The notes: a model not told the origin generated them from the letters alone. A stretch of DNA of 64,000 nucleotides from an uncultured bacterium (GCA_963749495.1 CAVVMW010000001.1:704001-768000), one strand, 5' to 3'. Shown: positions 52,998 through 63,214, numbered from the stretch's first letter. Program-made: numbers and translations.

Positions 52998-54467
52998 ATG
53001 CTCAATCAACTGACCATTTCTGAGCTGGTGGACAAACTACGCAGCGGCCAGACCACATCGAGGGCGGCCATGGCGGCCTGCCTGGAACGGATTCGGAGTG
53101 TGGACGGGCGGCTTGGGGCGTTCATCAGTTATGATGAAGCGGATGCGTTAAGCCAGGCGGGGGAGGCGGACCGGGCGCTGGCGGGGGGACAGACCCACGC
53201 CGAGCGGCCGCTGCTGGGGGTGCCGATCGCCGTCAAGGACGTCATTGCGGTCAAGGGCCAACCGCTCAATTGCGGTTCGAAGATCCTCGGCCACTACGTG
53301 TCCCCGTTCGACGCAACGGTGATCGAGAGGCTCAAGGGGGCCGGGGCGGTGATCTTTGGGCGGCTGAACATGGACGAGTTTGCCATGGGCAGTTCGACGG
53401 AGAACTCGGCCTTCCAGGTCACGCGCAATCCCTGGGACGAGTCGCGAGTGGCGGGCGGTTCCTCCGGCGGTTCGGCGGCGGCGGCAGCCGCCGATGAATG
53501 CCTGGCTGCCCTGGGCTCGGATACGGGCGGTTCGATTCGCCAGCCGGCATCGTTTTGCGGGTGCGTGGGGCTCAAGCCCTCTTATGGCCGGGTCTCGCGT
53601 TACGGGTTGGTGGCGTATGCCTCGTCGCTGGATCAGATCGGCTGCCTGACCAAGGACGTGCGGGACGCGGCAGCGCTGCTGGAAGTGATTGCCGGTGCGG
53701 ACCCTCGCGATTCGAGCAGCGTGCCCCAACCCGTGCCGGCCTACACCGCCGGGCTGACGGGCGAAATCAAGGGTCTGAAGCTGGGCCTGGCCAAGGAATA
53801 CATGGTGGGCGGCCTGGACGCGCAGGTCAAGGCGGCCATCAACGGCGCGGTGCTGCAACTGGGGCGGCTCGGCGCGGAAGTGATCGAGGTCTCGCTGCCC
53901 CACACCCAGTACGCTACGGCTGCCTACTACATCATCGCCACCGCCGAGGCCAGCGCCAACCTCGCCCGGTTCGACGGCATACGCTACGGCGCCCGGGTCG
54001 AGGGCGCGGACCCCATCGAGCTTTACGGCAAAACGCGCGGGGCCGGGTTCGGCGACAAGGTCAAGCGCCGCATCCTCCTGGGCACTTACGTCCTGAGCAG
54101 CGGCTACTACGACGCCTATTACCTGCGCGCGCAAAAGGTCCGCACGCTGATTCGCAAGGACTTTCTGGAGGCCTTCGAAACGGTGGACGCCATCCTCACG
54201 CCGGTGGCCCCCACCCCCGCGTTCAAGATCGGCGAAAAGTCCGATGACCCGCTGCAGATGTATTTGTCCGACATCTTCACTATTTCGTGCAACCTGGCCG
54301 GCCTGTGCGGCATCAGCGTGCCTTGCGGTTTCACGCCCCCTTGCGATACACCCGAGGGGCCTCGGCCCAGGTTGCCCGTCGGCCTGCAACTGCTCTGCAA
54401 GCCCTTTAACGAGCCAACGCTCCTGCGCATCGCGCATGCCTACGAAGTAGCGCATGGTTGCTCGTGA
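52998..54467 (+). CDS. gatA: Asp/Glu-tRNA amidotransferase subunit A
   Basis: [55 protein letters not shown]. Confidence 0.97.
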
Positions 54468-55467
54468 GGGTCCAGAGCCAGTGGTTCATCATTTCGGCGT
54501 TCGTTTTGTCGGTCCAATGCTTGAAGAGGGGCGCGGCGTTGCCCAGGGGCCGGCGCTGGAAGGCGGGATGGATTTCCAGCGTGAACGAGAGCGGGGCGGG
54601 CGCGATGGACTCAAAGGCCCGGGCGACGATGCGGGCCAGGCCCTCGGGACCAAAGAGGAGGGGCGCTGAGCGGCGTCCTCGAAACTCGAAGGGCAACGGA
54701 ATGTCGGCCAGGAAGCTCAGGTGATCGGAGACCCCAAAGGGGCTGACCGTCGAGAGCGGGTGGCCGTCGTGCAGATGAAAATGCACCGCCTTGCCAAGGC
54801 GGCCAATGACCGCGATGAGGTCCAGGACGGCCGGGAGCGCGGAGCGGACGGCGCGCTCCACCTCGGGCATGAGTTTGGGCAGGGCAGGGGGCTGGGACTT
54901 GAGCGAACAGACGTCCTGGCCGCGATGGCTCAGCGCGTAGGTCTGCCTGGCCTTCCAGATGCCGACGTGGCCCACATTGATGCAGGCGCCCAGACGGCCC
55001 AGGTCACGGATGGCGGCATGGAACCGCGCGAAGAACTCCGGCTCCAACCCGGCGGCGTTTTCAATGAAAAGCATGGGACCGGCGCCGGCCTGTTCCAGGG
55101 CCTCTTCCATTTGCCAGGCCCCATCGAGATAGGCCTGCGGGCGTTGCTCGAGGTCGGCGTGGTCGTGGAGGACCATGCCGGAAATGCGCCCTGCCAGGCG
55201 CGCGGCAAACTCGACGATGCGCCGGCGGCTGCCCGCCTCGGCCAGGTTCAGTTCGCGTGGCAGGTGGACCACCACGGGGGCCTCTGGGCCGGGCCGGAAT
55301 CGAAGCGCCTGCTCCAATTGCTCGGGTGTGGGGGCGTGCATCTCCGCGCCCAATCCTGCCTGCCGGAAACGCAGCCGGGCCAGTTCCATCAGGCTGTCGT
55401 CGCCTTCGATGCGCTTTTCGAAGAGACCGAGCAACTCGGCGCGGCAGGCGTGCGGACGAGGCTTCAC
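54406..55467 (-). CDS. TIM-barrel (xylose isomerase/AP endonuclease-like) protein
   Basis: [33 protein letters not shown] and TLEIH metal-ligand pattern. Confidence 0.65.
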
Positions 55468-55619
55468 GGAGGGCCTCCGCCGAACCGGACGTTCTTTGAG
55501 GGTATGGACGGTAAAGCGGCGGGATGCGCCGCACTCCAGGCGCTTCGCGTTTCACAGTTCACGTTTCACGTTTCACGTTTCACGTTTCACGTTTCGCCGG
55601 TCCATGGAAAGTTCCCTGG

Positions 55620-58600
55620 TCAATGCCTCAGCCCCTGCTGTGCCCGGGCCTGGACCAGGTAGATGTCCCGGGCGAGCACGGCGCCCTCGACGTCCTGGGG
55701 GGCTCCGAAGGCCTCCTCGACGCGGCGCGCGATGACCGCCAAACGCCCGCCCAGGTCCCTTCGCGCCTCCGTGTCGCAGGACAATGAGACGCGCGAATAA
55801 TCCACGGTCTGGCGCCAGACGCCGGAGGGTCGAGGGTCGAGGGTCGAGGGAAGGGACCTCCGTCCCTCGTCCCTCGTCCCTCGCCCCTCGCCCCTCGTCT
55901 CTCGCCCCTCGCCCCTCGCCCCTCGACCCTCCTGTCCGGTTCGGAGTGCCTGGCTGAAGTTGGCGAAGGCAAGGGTGCGAACTTGTCCGGAGTGTTTGTT
56001 GCACACCAGGCGGTAGGGATTGCCGGGCATCGCGCCCGAGACGAGGGTCTGGCCCAGGCCGACCGCCAGCTCGGCATAGACCTCGCGCGAGTTGCCGTCG
56101 AGCGGATTGACCGTGTGCAGGACGAATGAGAAGTCCGGGTCGAGCAGCAACTGGATCAACACAGCCATCCGGACCTGGTCGTGCGGGACGCCGCCCTGCT
56201 TGCGGCTCGAGGCGGCGCGCTGTGTCCAGAGCGAGGCCCACACGGCCCGGACGGCCGAGGCCACTTGCGCCGGGGGAACATTGGCGATGGATTCATAGAG
56301 GCCAGCGCCCGCCATGTCCGGCAGGTCCTCGCAGTTGGCGCTGGAGCGGACCATAAGGCGGTCCCTCGGGCGAAAGCGGCGGCCGACTTCGATGGCAACC
56401 CCTTGAGGCACGTCGATCCGGCCGATGATCTCGCGCAGGCGCCCGGTTGCCGCGGCGAACTCTTGGGCAGGCATCCGGTCCAGATCCCGGCACAACTGGT
56501 GGTATTCCGCCTCGGCCTGCGGGGCCGCGTGCAGGCCCTGCTCCATCACGCCCAATGGAACCACCAATCCGGGGCTGGTCTTGAAGCCGGCCCCGGGCTG
56601 GCGCGCCAATTCCTCCAGACGGCGGGCGCCTGCCGCCTTGCCCCCGCCCGAGCCCGGCACGAGTTGCTCGAGGGCCACGCACGGCGGCTTGGGGGCCAGC
56701 CGGGCGGGAGGGATGCGCGCCGGTTGGCGCCCGGCCTGGCTGGAGGCGGGGCATTCCGCCGCCGCCCATTCCACCTTCTCGGCAGTGGCCGTCAAGGTAA
56801 TCACTTGCCCTTGAAGGTCTTTGAGGCGGGCCCACTCGGCCGCCTCCTCGCAGCAAACCAGGACGACGCCCCCCTGCCGCGCCCGGACGCCCAGGTGCGA
56901 CAGATGAGGCAAGTCGTGGGCGAGCACGATGCCCCGGACGTTGGCGGGGATTTCCTCATCGCCTTCCGCATGGTCCAGGAGCGCCAGCACGGGCTGGCCC
57001 GAATCCTCGAGCCTGCGGACGGCCCGCAGGCGGCCTGTGGCCCGACCGCTGACCAGCACGTCCCACGGGGGCAACTGCAGCCGGGCGCGCAGGCGGCGCA
57101 AGAGGGCCGCAGCCAGCCTGGAGAGCTGGAAGACAAGATGGCCGCGGATTTCAGCCTCGGCGAAAACGCGGATGGCGTGCTCGGCGACGCCCAGGGCGCA
57201 CCCGAGCCGTTCGGCCTCGGTTGAAAACAACGCGGCGATGCGCCGGCTCTGCTCCTGGGCCAGGCGCAGACTGCGATCCATGGTCGCTTTGAGGCGCAGC
57301 AGCGGCTCGCTCTGGCCGCTATCCAGAGCCTGTCCCAAAAGCTCTGGTTCCGGACCTTTGTCGCAGCCCTTGTCGGTGCCTTTGTCGAAAAAGGGCCAAT
57401 CCGACAAAGGTTTCGACAAAGGCTGCGACAAAGGTCTGCTACTCGCGGGGCTCTTGGGACAGGTTCTATCCAAGTCCGGCCCCCAGGCGCGCAACTCCGA
57501 TTCGATGGCGGCGCATTCCTCGGGTTCGACACTGCTCAGCGCCAGGTTCGCAACCGTCAGCAGGAGCGTCTCCAGCCACAACCGCATCTGCTCCCCGCCG
57601 CCGCCCTCCAGGGCGTTGATCATCCGGCTCAAGAGAGAGAAGGCGAAATCCTCCAGGGCGATGTCGGCGAGCAGGAATGGCTCGGTTTCCTGGCCTGGCT
57701 CGCGCCGGGTGCGGTCCAGGCAGAGGCGGCGCACCCCGCTCAGGGCCCTGAGCGCGCCCAGTTGGCCGGACAGCCCGGCGCCCGCCTTTTGGCTGAGAAA
57801 GGAACGGATCAGCGCGGCTCCATCGGCGCCGGCCTTATCGAGGAGCGCCTCCAACCGCTCGTCCAGGGAATGGGCGTTGAAGAACTCCCGGAGTTCATGG
57901 TGGAAGATCTTGAACTGTTCGACAAAATCAGGCGAGTAATTTGCGCCGGGAGCGGTGATGCGGTCCAGGAGGGCTGTGGCCGTGACGAGGTCCTCGGGCC
58001 CCGCGCAGCGATGGAGCTTGTTTTGGAGGGACTCCTTGATCTCGCGTTTGAGCTCGGAGGGGATGTCGTTCCGGTGGGCGATGTCTCGGATGCGGGTGAG
58101 GGGCTCGGCGCGTTGAAACGGCTGGGCGGTCGAGGGCAGCCATGGATGGATCTTGCGCGCGATGAGGGCCTGCTCGGCGGTGGGCAATCGGGCCAGCCGC
58201 CGCTGGATGTCCAGGGCGATGCGCGCATGATGGGCCGGGCGAAAATGCCGGCCATCCTCGGCGCAACGGACCTGGCCCGTCCCGAGAAACCGCAGATAGA
58301 TCGCCACGTCCACCAGTTGCTCCTTGGACAGCGGGGCGGGCTTCCGGGCCAGGCGCTCGCGCACCCAATCCAGCTTCTCCCGCCAACTGCGGCAGCGCCG
58401 GTCTGCGGCCGCCAGTTCGCCGACGAAGTCCGGCTCACCTTGCCCTGCGGACGCCCCCTCACCCCGGCCCTCTCCCCGTCCGACGGGGAGAGGGAGGAGA
58501 GTCGGCCGACGCTCCGACAACCCTATGCTCTCGGGAATCTCCCTGCCGGCGCCCGGTTCCTCCCTCTCCCCATCCGATGGGGAGAGGGCCGGGGTGAGGG

Positions 58601-59450
58601 GTCCCCCGGGCGCCGGTGACGCGCGAGACGGGGAGGCTTGCGCCGCTGAGGCCGCCTCGTCAAACAATTGCAGGAGGCGGTCGCGGGCGGCGTTCAGGAG
58701 AGAGGGCGGGTGTGGCCATTGCTCGAGGATGATCGAGCCGGAGAAATTGCGGCGGGCCAGGCGCTCCAGGAGGTGGCGCACCCCCGACTCATCGCGCGCG
58801 GCAGGGCCTGTGAAGAGCGGCAAGTGGCTGTCGGCATCACCCCAGTTTTCGTGGAGATGGAGGTGGATGATCGGCAGGCGCGGGTCGAGCCGGTCCAGGA
58901 ACTCGAGGTAGCGGTTGTGCGTCGCCTCGCAGAGATTGGCATGGCCTACGTCCAGGCACATGCCAACCTGGGCGGCGGGCGCGGAGTGTGGCGCGCGCAG
59001 CAACTCGAACAGCTCATTGAACAATTCCGGGGAGTGCTGGGGCGTGTTCTCGATGGCCAGGCAAATCCCCGCTGCCGCCGCGCGCCGGACCAGGGGGAGA
59101 ATGGCCTCGACAAAGGCCGGCGCTCCTTGCTCCGCATAGAGGTGGATGTTCAGCAACTCCGCCCCGAGGTCCCGGGCCAATTCCAGATCCTTCCACAGCC
59201 AGGCCCTGCACTCCGCCTGCAGCGGGTTTGCCTGCCAGCGGGCGTGGACCGACATGCGCACCCCTGCAGCGCGCGCCCGCTCCCGAATCCGCGCCCGCAA
59301 CGGCGCCGCAAGATCCGCCTCGTCCCATCCCGCCGCCTCGCCATGCCGGTCGGGAAACCACTCAAAGGCATCGAACCCGGCCGCCAGGGCGTACTCGAAC
59401 GGGACCAGCGGCGGGGCGGCGAACGATGTCTGGTTGCCGATGTGTATCAT
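55620..59450 (-). CDS. Phosphoglucan water dikinase (PWD/GWD3)-like protein with N-terminal TIM barrel
   Basis: TIM motifs (FEW, SVH, IENTP, LDVGHA, HLHEN, ILE). PWD motifs SWREKL, AIYLRFLGTGQVRCAEDGRHFRPAHHA, PLTRIRDIAHRNDIP..LK.EIK..LQNKLHRCAGPEDL. Phospho-His motif LPHLSHLGVRARQ. Nucleotide-binding domain VRSSANCEDL...GAGLYES, GLGQTLV, QDVEG, QARAQ. Confidence 0.88.
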   Translation of the reverse strand: MIHIGNQTSFAAPPLVPFEYALAAGFDAFEWFPDRHGEAAGWDEADLAAPLRARIRERARAAGVRMSVHARWQANPLQAECRAWLWKDLELARDLGAELLNIHLYAEQGAPAFVEAILPLVRRAAAAGICLAIENTPQHSPELFNELFELLRAPHSAPAAQVGMCLDVGHANLCEATHNRYLEFLDRLDPRLPIIHLHLHENWGDADSHLPLFTGPAARDESGVRHLLERLARRNFSGSIILEQWPHPPSLLNAARDRLLQLFDEAASAAQASPSRASPAPGGPLTPALSPSDGEREEPGAGREIPESIGLSERRPTLLPLPVGRGEGRGEGASAGQGEPDFVGELAAADRRCRSWREKLDWVRERLARKPAPLSKEQLVDVAIYLRFLGTGQVRCAEDGRHFRPAHHARIALDIQRRLARLPTAEQALIARKIHPWLPSTAQPFQRAEPLTRIRDIAHRNDIPSELKREIKESLQNKLHRCAGPEDLVTATALLDRITAPGANYSPDFVEQFKIFHHELREFFNAHSLDERLEALLDKAGADGAALIRSFLSQKAGAGLSGQLGALRALSGVRRLCLDRTRREPGQETEPFLLADIALEDFAFSLLSRMINALEGGGGEQMRLWLETLLLTVANLALSSVEPEECAAIESELRAWGPDLDRTCPKSPASSRPLSQPLSKPLSDWPFFDKGTDKGCDKGPEPELLGQALDSGQSEPLLRLKATMDRSLRLAQEQSRRIAALFSTEAERLGCALGVAEHAIRVFAEAEIRGHLVFQLSRLAAALLRRLRARLQLPPWDVLVSGRATGRLRAVRRLEDSGQPVLALLDHAEGDEEIPANVRGIVLAHDLPHLSHLGVRARQGGVVLVCCEEAAEWARLKDLQGQVITLTATAEKVEWAAAECPASSQAGRQPARIPPARLAPKPPCVALEQLVPGSGGGKAAGARRLEELARQPGAGFKTSPGLVVPLGVMEQGLHAAPQAEAEYHQLCRDLDRMPAQEFAAATGRLREIIGRIDVPQGVAIEVGRRFRPRDRLMVRSSANCEDLPDMAGAGLYESIANVPPAQVASAVRAVWASLWTQRAASSRKQGGVPHDQVRMAVLIQLLLDPDFSFVLHTVNPLDGNSREVYAELAVGLGQTLVSGAMPGNPYRLVCNKHSGQVRTLAFANFSQALRTGQEGRGARGEGRETRGEGRGTRDEGRRSLPSTLDPRPSGVWRQTVDYSRVSLSCDTEARRDLGGRLAVIARRVEEAFGAPQDVEGAVLARDIYLVQARAQQGLRH
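57325..57467. mobile_element. MITE inserted in frame in the PWD-like gene
   Basis: Ends AGAGCCTGTCCCAA / TTGGGACAGGTTCT. CTATCCA repeated at 57319 and 57466 (147 bp = 49 codons). Internal CTTTGTCG/CGACAAAG units, also seen at 63250-63290. Confidence 0.8.
58455..58601. repeat. REP family A copy in frame within the PWD-like gene
   Basis: Matches 3190-3335; translated as PLTPALSPSDGERE...GRGEGRGEG. Confidence 0.88.
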
Positions 59451-60916
59451 GCCCCGGCCTTGATGTGGTGGTAGATGTTGATGTAATCCTGGCCCGGGCG
59501 GTTCCAGGAACAATCGTAGCGCATGCCGTTGACCATGAGTTCCCGGAAGTATTTCGGATAGCTAAACCACATGCCGATGGCGCGGTGGAGCGCCGATTCG
59601 AGGCCCTGCCAGTTGTAGTCGTTGAAGACATAGCCGTTGCGCTCGTGGTAGGGCTTGTGGGCGTAATCGGCGTCGAAGACGGTGTCGGCCAGGCCGCCGG
59701 TGTTGCGGACCACGGGGACGGCGCCGTATTTCAAGCCGATGATCTGGGCCAGGCCGCACGGTTCGTATTGGCTGGGGACCAGGAGCAGGTCGGCGCCGGC
59801 GTAGATGAGGTGGGCCAGTTCTTCGTCGTAGCCGATCTCGAGGTGGCAGTCGGGGTGATCGTTGAAGCGTCGTTTGAGGCGCCAGAAGGCCTCGTTGACA
59901 TGGCCATGAGGGCTGGAGCCCAGCAGGACGAACTGGCAGCCGTGGTCCAGGCAGTAAGGCACGGCGTCGAAGATGAGGTCCACGCCCTTCTGGTGGTCCA
60001 GGCGGCCGACGAAGGCGACGATGGGTTGGTAGTCGTGCCGGAGCCACAACCGCTCGCGGAGGGCCTGTTTGTTGGCGTATTTGTCCTGGAGGGTATCAAT
60101 GGAGTAGCGCCTGGGGATATGAGGGTCCGTCTCGGGGTTCCAGACGTTGCAGTCGATGCCGTTCATGACGCCGCCCAACTTCTGGTGGTGGACGTTGAGG
60201 ATGCGCTGGAGGCCCATGCCCAGCGGTGTGGTCTGGATTTCCCGGGCATAAGTGGGGGAGACGGTAGTGACGAAATTGGAATAGACGATGCCGCCCTTCA
60301 TCAGGTTGGCGCAGCCGGGGTAGGAGTCGTCCAGGAGGCGGTCGCGGTTCATGAGCGCGCGCGGGTCCAGCCCCACCTCGCGCAGGACGTGCTCCCCCAG
60401 TTGGCCCTGGTGGCCGACATTGTGGAGCGTGAAGCAAACACGGGGGCGCCTCATGCCCAGGTGCTGGTAGATCTCGTAGAGCAGCACCGGCGCCAGGGCC
60501 GTCTGCCAGTCGTGACAGTGGATCACCTCGGGGTGTTTGTTGGCCTTGAGCATGAACTCGAGGGCCGCCCGGCAGAAAAAGGCGAATCGCTCGCCGTCAC
60601 GGTCCCCGTAGAAATGGCCCCGGTTGAAGAAGTTGTGCTGCGAATGCGCGTCGATGAAGAAGCATTTGACGCCATCGACGAACCCAAAATAAACGTCGCA
60701 ATGGATCCACTGATCGTAAAATGGCACCCAGAGATCCGCATAGGACCTGGTCAACCCGTAGATCCGGTCGTAGCGCATGCAATCGTACTTCGGCAGAATG
60801 ACCTCGACCGCGTGGCCGCGCAGGGCCATCTCCCGCGACAGCCCGTGTACCACGTCGCCCAACCCGCCGACCTTGGCCGCAGGGGCGCACTCCGTAGCTA
60901 CCATGACGATGAACAT
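59447..60916 (-). CDS. glgA: Glycogen/starch synthase (GT5)
   Basis: ECAPAAKVGGLGDVV, HCHDWQTA, FTLHN, TTVSPTYA, GRLDHQKG, PSQYEPCGL, TGGLADTV. Confidence 0.96.
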   Translation of the reverse strand: MFIVMVATECAPAAKVGGLGDVVHGLSREMALRGHAVEVILPKYDCMRYDRIYGLTRSYADLWVPFYDQWIHCDVYFGFVDGVKCFFIDAHSQHNFFNRGHFYGDRDGERFAFFCRAALEFMLKANKHPEVIHCHDWQTALAPVLLYEIYQHLGMRRPRVCFTLHNVGHQGQLGEHVLREVGLDPRALMNRDRLLDDSYPGCANLMKGGIVYSNFVTTVSPTYAREIQTTPLGMGLQRILNVHHQKLGGVMNGIDCNVWNPETDPHIPRRYSIDTLQDKYANKQALRERLWLRHDYQPIVAFVGRLDHQKGVDLIFDAVPYCLDHGCQFVLLGSSPHGHVNEAFWRLKRRFNDHPDCHLEIGYDEELAHLIYAGADLLLVPSQYEPCGLAQIIGLKYGAVPVVRNTGGLADTVFDADYAHKPYHERNGYVFNDYNWQGLESALHRAIGMWFSYPKYFRELMVNGMRYDCSWNRPGQDYINIYHHIKAGA

Positions 60917-61095: not shown

Positions 61096-62562
61096 ATGAA
61101 GCAGCAGCAGACAGACCCCGCCGCCGCCACGCTCCACCCCTGGCGGGTGAGCCGGCCCCCATTCCGGGCGCAGCCCCCGGGCGCGCTCGGCAATTGGGAG
61201 TGGGACCTTGCCACGGGCATAATCGCGTGGTCGGATGAGGTCTATCGCATGTTCGGGTTCGATCCGCGGCAATTTCAGCCCACTCATCAGAACTTCCTGT
61301 CGCGCGTTCACCCGGAGGATCAGTCGGTCTTCGAGGGCGCGCTGGAGGATGCCTTGAACGGGCGCCGCCCCTACGCGCTGGAGTTTCGCATCCGGGCGAG
61401 CGATGGGACGGTGCGAGTGGTTCGTTCGCAGGGGGCCGTGATTGCCAACGAGGCGGGCCGGCCCGTGCGCATGTTCGGCACGGCCCAGGATGTGACGCGG
61501 CGCCAATGGGCCGAGGAGGCGCTGCGCACCTCCGAGCAACGGCTGCGCATTCTCTTCGAGTATGCCCCGGACGCCTACGTTCTCTGCGACACCCAAGGCC
61601 GGTTCGTGGATGTCAACCGGGCCGCCGAGGACATCAGTGGCTATGGGCGGGAGGAACTGATCGGCAAGAGTCTCTTCCAGTTGGACTTGCTCTCCCCGGC
61701 AGAGCGCGCCAAGGCCGCCGCGCACGTGGGGCAGTTGAGGCAGGGTCAGGCCGTGGGCCCGCATGAGATCACCTTTCGCCGCAAAGACGGGAGTGGGCGG
61801 ACCGTCGAAATCCGCTGCTACCCGGCGCAGGTCGACGGCCAGGTGCTCGTGCTGGGCATAGCGCGGGATGTCACGGAGCGGCACCGCGCCGAAGAGGCCG
61901 TGCAACAGCTCTCCGCCCAATTGTTGAGCCTGCAAGACGAAGAACGCCGGCGAGTGGCCCGTGAAATCCACGACTCGACCGCGCAGAAGCTGGCGGGTTT
62001 GATGCTGGCGCTGGGGGGCCTGGAGGACGCTGCCGCAGCGCCGGCGTTGCGGAGGCTCGCGGCGGAGGCCCAGGCGCTGGCCGGCGAGTGCGCGCAGGAA
62101 CTGCGGACCCTTTCCCATCTCCTGCACCCGCCCCTGCTGGAGGAACTCGGGTTGGGCGTGGCCCTGGACACTTATGTCACCGGCTTCAGCAAGCGCAGCG
62201 GCATCGAGGTTCTTTTGGATGTGCCTGCGGGCCTGGTCGGACTGCCTGCGGCAGCGGAGTTGGCGCTGTTTCGCATCGTGCAGGAGGGCCTGGGCAACAT
62301 TCTGCGCCACTCGGGCAGCCGCAGCGCCCGGGTGCACCTGACCCAGTTCAAAGAGCGCCTTGTCCTGGAAATCTGCGATGATGGCCGCGGCATCCCCGCC
62401 GAGCGCCTGCGCCAGGTCCGCGAGCACGCGTCCGCCTGCGGCGTGGGCATCGCCGGCATGCAGCAACGCCTCAAACAACTGGGAGGCGAACTGGAAATTG
62501 ATTCGACTCGCGCCGGCGTGACGGTCCGGGCCACCTTGCCTCGCCATGAGCGTGCCGGCTGA
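61096..62562 (+). CDS. PAS-PAS sensor histidine kinase (HisKA_3)
   Basis: GNWEWD, RVHPED, ERRRVAREIHDS, FRIVQEGLGN, DDGRG, GIAGM. Confidence 0.92.
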   Translation: MKQQQTDPAAATLHPWRVSRPPFRAQPPGALGNWEWDLATGIIAWSDEVYRMFGFDPRQFQPTHQNFLSRVHPEDQSVFEGALEDALNGRRPYALEFRIRASDGTVRVVRSQGAVIANEAGRPVRMFGTAQDVTRRQWAEEALRTSEQRLRILFEYAPDAYVLCDTQGRFVDVNRAAEDISGYGREELIGKSLFQLDLLSPAERAKAAAHVGQLRQGQAVGPHEITFRRKDGSGRTVEIRCYPAQVDGQVLVLGIARDVTERHRAEEAVQQLSAQLLSLQDEERRRVAREIHDSTAQKLAGLMLALGGLEDAAAAPALRRLAAEAQALAGECAQELRTLSHLLHPPLLEELGLGVALDTYVTGFSKRSGIEVLLDVPAGLVGLPAAAELALFRIVQEGLGNILRHSGSRSARVHLTQFKERLVLEICDDGRGIPAERLRQVREHASACGVGIAGMQQRLKQLGGELEIDSTRAGVTVRATLPRHERAG

Positions 62563-63214
62563 AACGCTCAGGGTCCTGGTCGCCGATGACCATGCCGTGG
62601 TCCGCGACGGGGTGCGCCGCCTCATCGAGACGCAGCCGGGTTGGCGCGTGGTGGGGGAGGCGGCCACCGGCCGGGAGGCCGTCGCTCTGGCCCAACAACT
62701 GCGGCCGCACGTCGTGGTGCTGGACTTCACCATGCCCGAGCTCAATGGCCTGGAGGCGACACGCCAGATCCGCCGGGCCCTGCCGGAGACCGAGGTGCTG
62801 GTGATGACGGTACACGATTCCGAGAGGCTGGCCCAGCAGTTCCTGGATGCGGGCGCGCGCGGCTACGTGCTCAAGAGCGACGCGCGCAGTCATCTTCTGG
62901 CCGCCCTGCAGGCCATGGCTAAGCACCAAACCTACTTCACGCCCAAAGTCTCCGATCTCATCCTCAGGCGGTTCCTGGAATCCAGGACCGGCGCCGACGC
63001 CCAGGGCCTGCCCTTCGAACATCTCACCTCCCGCGAAAGAGAAGTGCTCCAGCTCGTGGCCGAAGGCCGCACCACCAAGGAAATCGCCGCCATTCTGGGC
63101 CTGAGCGCCAAAACCGTGGAAGTCCATCGCGCCAACCTCATGAGCAAGCTCAATCTCCACTCCGTCGCCGACCTCGTCCGCTATGCCGTGCGGAACCAGA
63201 TCATCGAGCCGTGA
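62546..63214 (+). CDS. NarL/LuxR response regulator
   Basis: VADDH, LDFTMPELNG, LTSREREVL, KTVEVHRANLMSKL. Confidence 0.95.
   Translation: MSVPAETLRVLVADDHAVVRDGVRRLIETQPGWRVVGEAATGREAVALAQQLRPHVVVLDFTMPELNGLEATRQIRRALPETEVLVMTVHDSERLAQQFLDAGARGYVLKSDARSHLLAALQAMAKHQTYFTPKVSDLILRRFLESRTGADAQGLPFEHLTSREREVLQLVAEGRTTKEIAAILGLSAKTVEVHRANLMSKLNLHSVADLVRYAVRNQIIEP

Follow-up and report, generated by a model that had tools for sequence, protein, structure and literature searches.

The window, a 64,000-nt stretch of DNA from an uncultured bacterium (GCA_963749495.1, CAVVMW010000001.1:704001-768000), carries a cluster of three genes: glgA, a gene fusing a TIM barrel to a glucan dikinase of the phosphoglucan, water dikinase (PWD) type, and a gene for a second TIM-barrel protein, here called P3 (Table 1). 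ORF listing and translation confirmed that these are three co-directional open reading frames (ORFs) on the minus strand. The stop codon of glgA (TGA, 59449-59447) overlaps the start codon of the fusion gene (ATG, 59450-59448), so that the three-gene arrangement with an ATGA overlap, proposed in a first-pass annotation of this DNA, is borne out both by the ORFs and by direct reading of the sequence. The start of the fusion gene at 59450 fits the 1276-aa length of an identical public protein (P0004). Similarly, the start of glgA at 60916 is plausible, as the alignment of the longest ORF with NCBIfam GlgA models begins at its residue 24. The glgA product matches NF001905 at 9.2e-255 (845.7 bits, with the cut-off at 560) and Pfam Glyco_transf_5 at 3.1e-70, and has both the GT5 and the GT1 domain by which a bacterial GlgA is recognized.

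Table 1. Features of the glgA-dikinase cluster (positions counted from the first letter of the window)
Feature	Position	Strand	Basis or remark
glgA, ADP-glucose-type glycogen synthase (GT5)	59447..60916	-	longest ORF to 60985; likely start ATG at 60916
ATGA overlap of the glgA stop and the barrel::dikinase start codon	59447..59450	-	direct sequence reading
Fusion gene, 1276 aa (P0004): endonuclease IV-like TIM barrel, linker, PWD-type glucan dikinase	55620..59450	-	Pfam AP_endonuc_2 + GWD1_pHisD + PPDK_N
N-terminal TIM-barrel domain with nine-residue His/Asp/Glu constellation	58629..59450	-	invariant residues, AF2, Foldseek
Low-complexity linker between barrel and dikinase	58377..58628	-	length and sequence differ among relatives; TRF period-12 repeat 58456-58478
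Central helical region specific to PWD-type dikinases, with PLTRIRDIAHRNDIP...QNKLHRCAGPEDL and YLRFLGTGQVRCAEDGRHFRP	57066..58376	-	columns invariant in bacterial and named eukaryotic PWDs
In-frame insertion of ~50 codons, copy of a genome-dispersed palindromic repeat (~105-150 nt)	57312..57479	-	absent from the other 11 alignment sequences
Phosphohistidine (swivel) domain; candidate catalytic His852 (LSHLG), codon 56895-56897	56757..57065	-	Pfam GWD1_pHisD 1.5e-20
ATP-grasp nucleotide-binding domain (PPDK_N), C-terminal to the His domain	55635..56645	-	Pfam PPDK_N 9.4e-37
In-frame heptanucleotide arrays giving a GEGRG-rich loop in the nucleotide-binding domain	55825..55931	-	TRF GAGGGTC x3.7, CCCTCGC x9.7
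Intergenic heptamer array TTCACGT x7.4	55544..55595	.	between dikinase stop and P3 start; similar arrays elsewhere in the genome
P3, 353 aa, divergent TIM barrel of the same superfamily	54406..55467	-	GTG start, GGAGG upstream; no Pfam family

In the fusion protein, Pfam places GWD1_pHisD (residues 817-919) before PPDK_N (957-1293) and finds no domain binding phosphoenolpyruvate (PEP) or pyruvate. The translation contains PLTRIRDIAHRNDIP...QNKLHRCAGPEDL, AIYLRFLGTGQVRCAEDGRHFRPAHHA, LPHLSHLGVRARQ and VRSSANCEDL...AGLYES. The conserved histidine lies in the context LSHLGVRARQ, as required for the PWD family; it is residue 873 of the ORF as printed and His852 of the 1276-aa protein. We aligned the window protein with 11 others, namely, seven bacterial relatives and four eukaryotic PWDs. 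S851, H852, L853 and the above motifs are invariant between the window protein and the PWDs of Cucurbita, Chlorokybus, and Porphyridium. The first-pass annotation had quoted these motifs, located the histidine codon at 56895-56897, placed the histidine domain before the nucleotide-binding domain, and recognized in the motifs and their order those of plant and algal PWD. All the quoted motifs are present in the translation, the codon position agrees by arithmetic, and the domain order coincides with that given by Pfam and is identical in the named eukaryotic PWDs.

Nor is the likeness confined to the generic domains shared with PEP synthase and pyruvate, phosphate dikinase (PPDK), the weak point which that annotation itself had foreseen. 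The dikinase part (918 aa) aligns with the Cucurbita pepo PWD over query residues 1-913 at 37% identity (516.8 bits, E 1.2e-149), while the paralogue of the glucan, water dikinase (GWD) type encoded in the same genome is 31% identical over the C-terminal 574 residues (187 bits). Hence PWD is closer than GWD over the whole length, including a 430-residue central region common to PWD alone. The profile of the window PWD-type family matches the solved GWD1 fragment 9ha9 weakly (6.6e-8), and the window protein has neither the Ig_N_CWD1 (CBM45-type) modules nor the central region of the GWD1 type. Matches to PDB entries are limited to the ATP-grasp domains of PEP synthase and rifampin-phosphotransferase-type enzymes. 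We considered and rejected the identification of the protein as a PEP synthase, PPDK, or rifampin phosphotransferase, as these matches cover only the ATP-grasp domain, fall far below the family cut-offs, and imply the wrong domain order. The homology of the window dikinase to eukaryotic PWD over ~900 residues is, judging by these alignments, strongly supported.

The family is large. Of 7999 candidates scored in a word-indexed search, 1014 were homologues at E<=1e-3. The 120 homologues listed are 48-60% identical to the query; 99 of them share its three Pfam domains, and 44 bear the automatic Joint Genome Institute (JGI) name 'phosphoglucan,water dikinase'. An exhaustive HMMER search with the dikinase part against 1.84 billion cluster representatives retrieved 10,857 proteins at E<=1e-3, of which 426 reached E<=1e-30. 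Judging by source names, eukaryotic sources among the matches include Cucurbita pepo ('phosphoglucan, water dikinase, chloroplastic-like'), Chlorokybus, a Mesen1 gene model, Porphyridium, Hanusia, Digyalum, and MMETSP transcripts. From the best 150 HMMER matches, we scanned 43 that lack the barrel and have an N-terminal extension; in 38 of these 43, Pfam detected CBM_20, GWD1_pHisD, and PPDK_N, that is, the PWD architecture. In the window protein, the site of the family's CBM20 is taken by the barrel.

The first-pass annotation missed a second dikinase encoded in the same genome (P0124; contig C22, L003:8492-12004). This protein is comprised of two Ig_N_CWD1 domains, the phosphohistidine domain (1.7e-36), and PPDK_N, and matches 9ha9, the solved fragment of the chloroplastic, potato-type GWD, at 1.1e-80. 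With P0124 being of the GWD1 type and the window gene of the PWD type, the genome has one enzyme of each plant type. The neighbours of the P0124 gene are unrelated and encode a miaA-like IPP transferase, a beta-helix protein, a protein with the beta-lactamase fold, and a Fic protein.

The N-terminal barrel of the fusion protein had also been overlooked. Pfam assigns residues 39-271 to AP_endonuc_2 (6.1e-24), and the AF2 model of the domain has a pLDDT of 92.6. The best match of the barrel profile in PDB is MJ1311 (3wqo, 9.3e-13), followed by the AP endonucleases of African swine fever virus (ASFV) and Mycobacterium tuberculosis, with the chains of E. coli endonuclease IV at E ~0.09. At the structure level, the top Foldseek matches of the model are 3wqo, the ASFV AP endonuclease, and UlaE. 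In 27 barrel sequences, both fused and free-standing, the residues H69, H103, E134, D167, H170, H196/198/200, D207, H209, and E243 (domain numbering) are invariant; among them, H69, H103, E134, D167, H170, H198, D207, H209, and E243 align with H69, H109, E145, D179, H182, H216, D229, H231, and E261 of E. coli endonuclease IV (Nfo), respectively.

P3 is more divergent, with no Pfam family match, although hhalign relates its N-terminal half to the barrel family with 95% probability. Its AF2 model (pLDDT 90.3) has E. coli and M. tuberculosis endonuclease IV as the top Foldseek matches (3-6e-6, with a TM-score of only 0.39-0.55), sugar epimerases being close behind. In the ESM Atlas, P3 matched only bacterial clusters without a name and a single AP_endonuc_2 cluster (0.90). 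Relatives of P3 retain H68, H101, E136, D164, H167, HxHxH, D248-H249, and E298, as well as the motifs VHL, HD, IEYA, and LEIHP. The P3 of locus L004 is 70% similar to that of the window, a level equal to that seen for same-genus genomes. For both barrels, the best NCBIfam match is the phosphodiesterase CbiR, a weak one, and in neither does Pfam find a dual-specificity phosphatase (DSP) domain. The TIM-barrel fold of the fused barrel is certain, and the ligand pattern supports a putative phosphoesterase site in it; P3 is a candidate for the same fold and ligand set.

To describe the genomic context, we scanned one genome per species, found 175 relatives, and kept 80 loci, which were annotated by tblastn with the proteins of the window. 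The source metagenome-assembled genomes are titled Verrucomicrobiota, Nitrospirota/Thermodesulfovibrionales, Desulfobacterales and other 'Deltaproteobacteria', Scalindua and Gemmataceae (Planctomycetota), Chloroflexota, and others. The barrel is followed by the PWD-type dikinase in 43 of the 80 loci, and in 41 of these 43 the two form a single open frame. In another 27 loci the barrel stands alone, 3 kb or more of downstream DNA being free of a PWD-type gene, and ten are too short to tell. A GWD-type gene lies immediately upstream of the barrel in 56 of the 67 loci with room upstream; for stand-alone barrels, the same holds in 19 of the 24 loci (out of 27) with enough upstream DNA. P3 lies within 500 nt downstream of a full-length PWD-type gene in 31 of 33 cases and occurs in one of the 27 stand-alone-barrel loci. 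From these counts, the common order is GWD-type gene, barrel, PWD-type gene, P3, the barrel being the companion of the GWD-type gene, and P3 that of the PWD-type gene. The order in the window (glgA, barrel::PWD, P3, with the GWD-type gene elsewhere) is a derived arrangement, seen also in L004 and L023.

Fusions of the PWD-type dikinase to P3 were found in ten of the best 150 representatives (P0126, P0131, P0132, P0142, P0163, P0170, P0180, P0191, P0193, and P0241), one of which also has the N-terminal barrel and is thus a three-part fusion. A 1664-aa open frame on contig C120 of genome G309 is likewise a fusion of a PWD-type dikinase and P3.

A glgA gene at 55% identity or more lies within the locus (~8 kb) in 24 of the 80 cases. 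In ten long loci, chosen for having both flanks, we scanned the longer 55 of 94 flanking ORFs; GH57 (several with the branching-enzyme C-domain), GH13 with CBM48, GH77, GT35, or glgA flank nine of them, whereas in L011 no alpha-glucan gene was found among the flanking ORFs scanned. The glgA synteny across homologues, which the first-pass annotation had wished to see checked, thus holds only in part, by way of the 24 loci and, more broadly, of the alpha-glucan genes in the long ones. In three of the ten long loci, a gene for a DUF4912 protein adjoins that for a GH57 branching enzyme near the dikinase cluster (L044:15663-16601, L067:15591-16691, and L048:3491-4390).

GWD1_pHisD is patchily distributed and lineage-restricted. 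It is present in all three genomes of the same genus and in nine of the 21 other genomes of the family (12 of 24 for the family in total), but in one of 16 genomes from other families of the order and in none of 300 from the rest of the phylum. In four genomes of the same family (G309, G313, G317, and G321), both dikinase genes are on one contig ~3.5 kb apart. The two genes of G303 are separated by ~10 kb and lie on opposite strands, whereas G301 and G305 have them on different contigs, like the window genome.

The host genome (11.4 Mb in 31 contigs, 88% complete, with 5.8% contamination) encodes one GlgC above the cut-off, two full GT35 phosphorylases, two GT5 synthases, one of them the glgA product of the window, and CBM48 enzymes. 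The profile search of this genome found no GH14 above the cut-off and no DSP-type phosphatase, the sole DSPc match scoring 29.1 bits against a threshold of 33.5. The barrel and P3 are each present in a single copy. A search of sequencing runs listed no RNA run with the sequence; one DNA run contained a small share (0.07) of its words. The first-pass annotation had suggested that the bacterium might make a starch-like polymer; this ordinary set of glucan genes gives no indication of one. Divergently from glgA, at 61096-63214 on the plus strand, lie genes for a PAS-PAS-HisKA_3 histidine kinase and a LuxR-type response regulator. This pair could regulate the operon.

We consider it somewhat probable that the cluster is an operon by which the cell both makes its own alpha-1,4-glucan, that is, glycogen, and phosphorylates it, with the barrels acting as metal-dependent glucan phosphoesterases. 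GlgA would elongate the glucan from ADP-glucose. The second protein would be a cytoplasmic PWD-type dikinase, whose C-terminal ATP-grasp domain would bind ATP; the beta-phosphate would be passed to His852 of the swivel domain and then to a glucosyl hydroxyl, with the release of AMP and phosphate. By orthology with plant PWD, C3 is the expected position, and the unlinked GWD1-type paralogue may phosphorylate C6 first. The barrel and P3 would take off the glucan-bound phosphate and so correspond, without being homologous, to SEX4, LSF2, and laforin, the glucan phosphatases of plants and animals. Given how the genes are paired, the GWD-type enzyme would have the barrel as its partner, and the PWD-type enzyme would have P3. 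While gene structure, homology, conserved residues, and synteny are read directly from the data, we infer the glucan substrate, the phosphorylated position, and the phosphatase role of the barrels; from sequence, glucan phosphorylation by a bacterial PWD-type enzyme is plausible.

Several observations weigh against this interpretation. Linkage to glgA is confined to 30% of the loci, 56 of the 80 having no glgA within reach, and the PWD-type protein has no CBM20, CBM45, or other known carbohydrate-binding module detectable by Pfam. It would seem futile to join a kinase to a phosphatase for the same polymer if the two were not regulated. The nine Nfo residues to which the barrel was aligned are what we take, from the 1999 crystal structure, to be the ligands of the three-metal cluster of endonuclease IV, and our literature search did not confirm this assignment. 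Moreover, hhalign of the barrel profile with E. coli Nfo covers 202 columns with a probability of only 75% (E 2.4e-5); for P3, the probability is 7.8%, and the P3 profile has no match among PDB sequences at E up to 1. In the window, P3 has Asn at the predicted ligand Asp164 and at Tyr137, while all 27 other sequences have Asp and Tyr. Finally, UlaE and ketose 3-epimerases score almost as well as phosphoesterases for both barrels, so that the fold alone does not discriminate between these functions.

This last point leads to an alternative that we regard as unlikely, in which the dikinase does phosphorylate glucan, but the barrels isomerize or epimerize sugars or sugar phosphates, their substrates being phosphorylated glucosyl residues or released phospho-oligosaccharides, or else the N-terminal barrel is mainly a binding module that takes the place of CBM20 and directs the enzyme to (phospho)glucan. 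Indeed, the Pfam family of the barrel, AP_endonuc_2, is xylose-isomerase-like, and the best structural match, 3wqo, is titled 'D-tagatose 3-epimerase-like protein'. L-xylulose-5-phosphate 3-epimerase UlaE (TM-score 0.73) and ketose 3-epimerases are near the top for the barrel and are among the P3 matches, and the barrel does sit at the CBM20 position of eukaryotic PWD. As far as is known, however, sugar epimerases of this fold use fewer ligands, whereas all nine Nfo-aligned positions, including the D-x-H pair, are invariant in the 27 barrels. A mere binding module would not need these nine residues, and the barrel also occurs as a free-standing gene after GWD-type genes, in the 19 loci mentioned above.

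Could the system be decaying in this genome, so that the operon works less well than in relatives or not at all? Three lineage-specific insertions are present in the window protein. The palindromic repeat in the central region gives 554 blastn high-scoring segment pairs across the genome, its copies sharing 89-95% identity over 100-130 nt, and translated copies number in the dozens and are spread over many contigs; the period-12 arrays detected by TRF inside this insertion lie at 57358-57387 and 57402-57435. The insertion in the nucleotide-binding domain is absent from the seven bacterial relatives and from three of the four eukaryotic PWDs in the alignment, P0145 having its own insert there. 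Peptides resembling 'RGARGEGR...RRS(L/I)PSTL..RPS' occur in the barrel-dikinase linkers of P0010 and P0014, and the same repeat seems to insert at different sites in orthologues.

A dispersed repeat and heptamer arrays within the coding sequence are what decay might produce. The same applies to D164N and Y137N in P3, unique among 28 sequences, and to the location on different contigs of the GWD- and PWD-type genes, which are adjacent in several genomes of the family. Still, we give decay a low probability. All three insertions are in frame, with no stop, and fall at sites where other sequences have indels, and all invariant residues of the dikinase and the fused barrel are kept; an Asn can still bind metal. 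An open reading frame in spite of three repeat insertions argues for selection maintaining the gene.

The least probable alternative, that the dikinase acts on another polysaccharide, a small molecule, or a protein and resembles PWD by common ancestry only, would accommodate the lack of a known carbohydrate-binding module, the loci without glgA, and the best, though far sub-threshold, NCBIfam matches to rifamycin phosphotransferase and PEP synthases, but these matches are limited to the ATP-grasp domain, and the central 430 residues common to PWD alone, the alpha-glucan enzymes beside nine of ten long loci, and the translational coupling to glgA in the window all speak against it.

The first-pass annotation had held that the gene bears on the origin of PWD. 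We constructed two trees, both rooted on bacterial GWD-type sequences only (15 in FastTree), with no eukaryotic GWD1 outgroup, and both separate PWD-type from GWD-type sequences with 100% support. In FastTree (125 rows), the main bacterial clade (54 rows, support 98) falls within the diversity of eukaryotic CBM20-containing PWDs. In IQ-TREE under LG+C20+F+G4 with posterior mean site frequencies (PMSF) and 60 chosen rows, all CBM20 sequences, eukaryotic as well as unassigned, fall into a single clade (SH-aLRT 93), which is sister to the main bacterial clade (86), while other barrel-fused bacterial lineages are deeper (88 and 84). The FastTree-like grouping survives the approximately unbiased (AU) test under PMSF site frequencies (delta lnL 17.5, p-AU 0.177). 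The gene does bear on the question, but the trees do not distinguish a bacterial from a eukaryotic origin of PWD. Four PWD-type proteins that are short or carry CBM20 (P0237, P0247, P0256, and P0223), encoded on metagenome contigs of 9-77 kb, cluster with eukaryotic sequences in the mixture-model tree; in P0237 and P0247, there is no N-terminal extension before CBM20.

A far-reaching extension of the glycogen-phosphorylation reading can be offered only tentatively, and we find it doubtful as a whole. Bacteria of several phyla would possess a full reversible cycle of storage-glucan phosphorylation, in which the GWD- and PWD-type dikinases each have their own endonuclease IV-like metallophosphatase, a new class of glucan phosphatases unrelated to SEX4, LSF2, and laforin, and eukaryotic PWD would go back to a bacterial gene of this kind, CBM20 having taken the place of the barrel. 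The bacterial descent of eukaryotic PWD is suggested by the site-heterogeneous tree.

As the first-pass annotation stated, GWDs are generally seen as eukaryotic starch enzymes, and this view is found in print: GWD and PWD are treated as hallmarks of semicrystalline starch in eukaryotes (10.64898/2026.09.25.754361, PMC6260743), and a 2026 preprint reports a perfect correlation of GWD with semicrystalline glucans in eukaryotes (10.64898/2026.09.25.754361). The words dikinase, GWD, and phosphoglucan are absent from the examined portion of a 2024 Chem Rev review of prokaryotic alpha-glucan enzymes (PMC11046441). The outline of a 2026 review of glucan phosphorylation covers plants, red algae, and animals and has no bacterial section; in the same source, the mechanism and role of glycogen phosphate are described as an open question in animal biology (PMC13666283).

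The first-pass annotation had made its claim of novelty depend on the lack of characterized bacterial orthologues. No characterized bacterial GWD or PWD was found in the literature searched, which did not cover the supplementary GWD/PWD trees of the preprint; in two Desulfobacterota-related papers, 'water dikinase' stood for pyruvate,water dikinase. To this extent the claim stands, but the novelty is less than assumed, as the family name is already in annotation pipelines (see the JGI names above) and a 2018 figure legend mentions bacterial GWDs as a possible case of lateral gene transfer (PMC6260743). Bacteria are included in the GWD tree of the Goniomonas genome paper. What is most original here is the candidate role of the endonuclease IV-like barrels as glucan phosphatases, together with how strictly P3 is paired with the PWD-type gene.

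What we describe is a large, operon-encoded family spanning Verrucomicrobiota, Nitrospirota, Desulfobacterota-type lineages, Planctomycetota, and Chloroflexota. If the proposed function is true, bacterial glycogen can be phosphorylated on purpose. The bacterial proteins would offer simple recombinant systems for PWD chemistry, along with two proposed candidate glucan phosphatases of a new fold, and the origin of the plant starch-phosphorylating enzymes becomes testable.

Among known systems, the closest is PWD/GWD3 of plants and algae (EC 2.7.9.5). The window protein shares with it ~900 homologous residues, spanning the central region, the phosphohistidine domain with LPHLSHLGVRARQ, and the ATP-grasp domain, with 37% identity to the Cucurbita pepo enzyme, the same domain order, and a position on the PWD side of the trees. 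Unlike PWD, it has neither CBM20 nor a transit peptide and carries an N-terminal endonuclease IV-like barrel, and its gene belongs to a bacterial operon that also includes glgA and the gene for a second barrel. With GWD1/R1/SEX1 (EC 2.7.9.4), it shares the catalytic design of a swivel histidine followed by ATP-grasp; it differs by the lack of CBM45-like modules, by its 31% identity to the GWD1-type paralogue, and by its weak match to 9ha9. PEP synthase, PPDK, and rifampin phosphotransferase have in common with it the PPDK_N ATP-grasp domain and the phosphohistidine relay, but PEP synthase has the reverse domain order, while the window protein lacks the PEP/pyruvate domain and scores far below the NCBIfam cut-offs.

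The barrels resemble the endonuclease IV/AP_endonuc_2 superfamily, including MJ1311 (PDB 3wqo) and CbiR, in the TIM-barrel fold and, for the fused barrel, in the alignment of its invariant residues with the nine Nfo positions; on the other hand, their sequence identity to endonuclease IV is very low, and there is no evidence of DNA binding. As the barrels are always linked to glucan dikinases, their substrate is likely a sugar phosphate ester rather than DNA. SEX4 and LSF2 remove the phosphate added by GWD and PWD (PMC13666283). With these enzymes and laforin, the barrels would share only the proposed role, that is, the removal of C6 or C3 phosphate for glucan breakdown, a metal-dependent TIM barrel being unrelated both in fold and in chemistry to a cysteine-dependent DSP.

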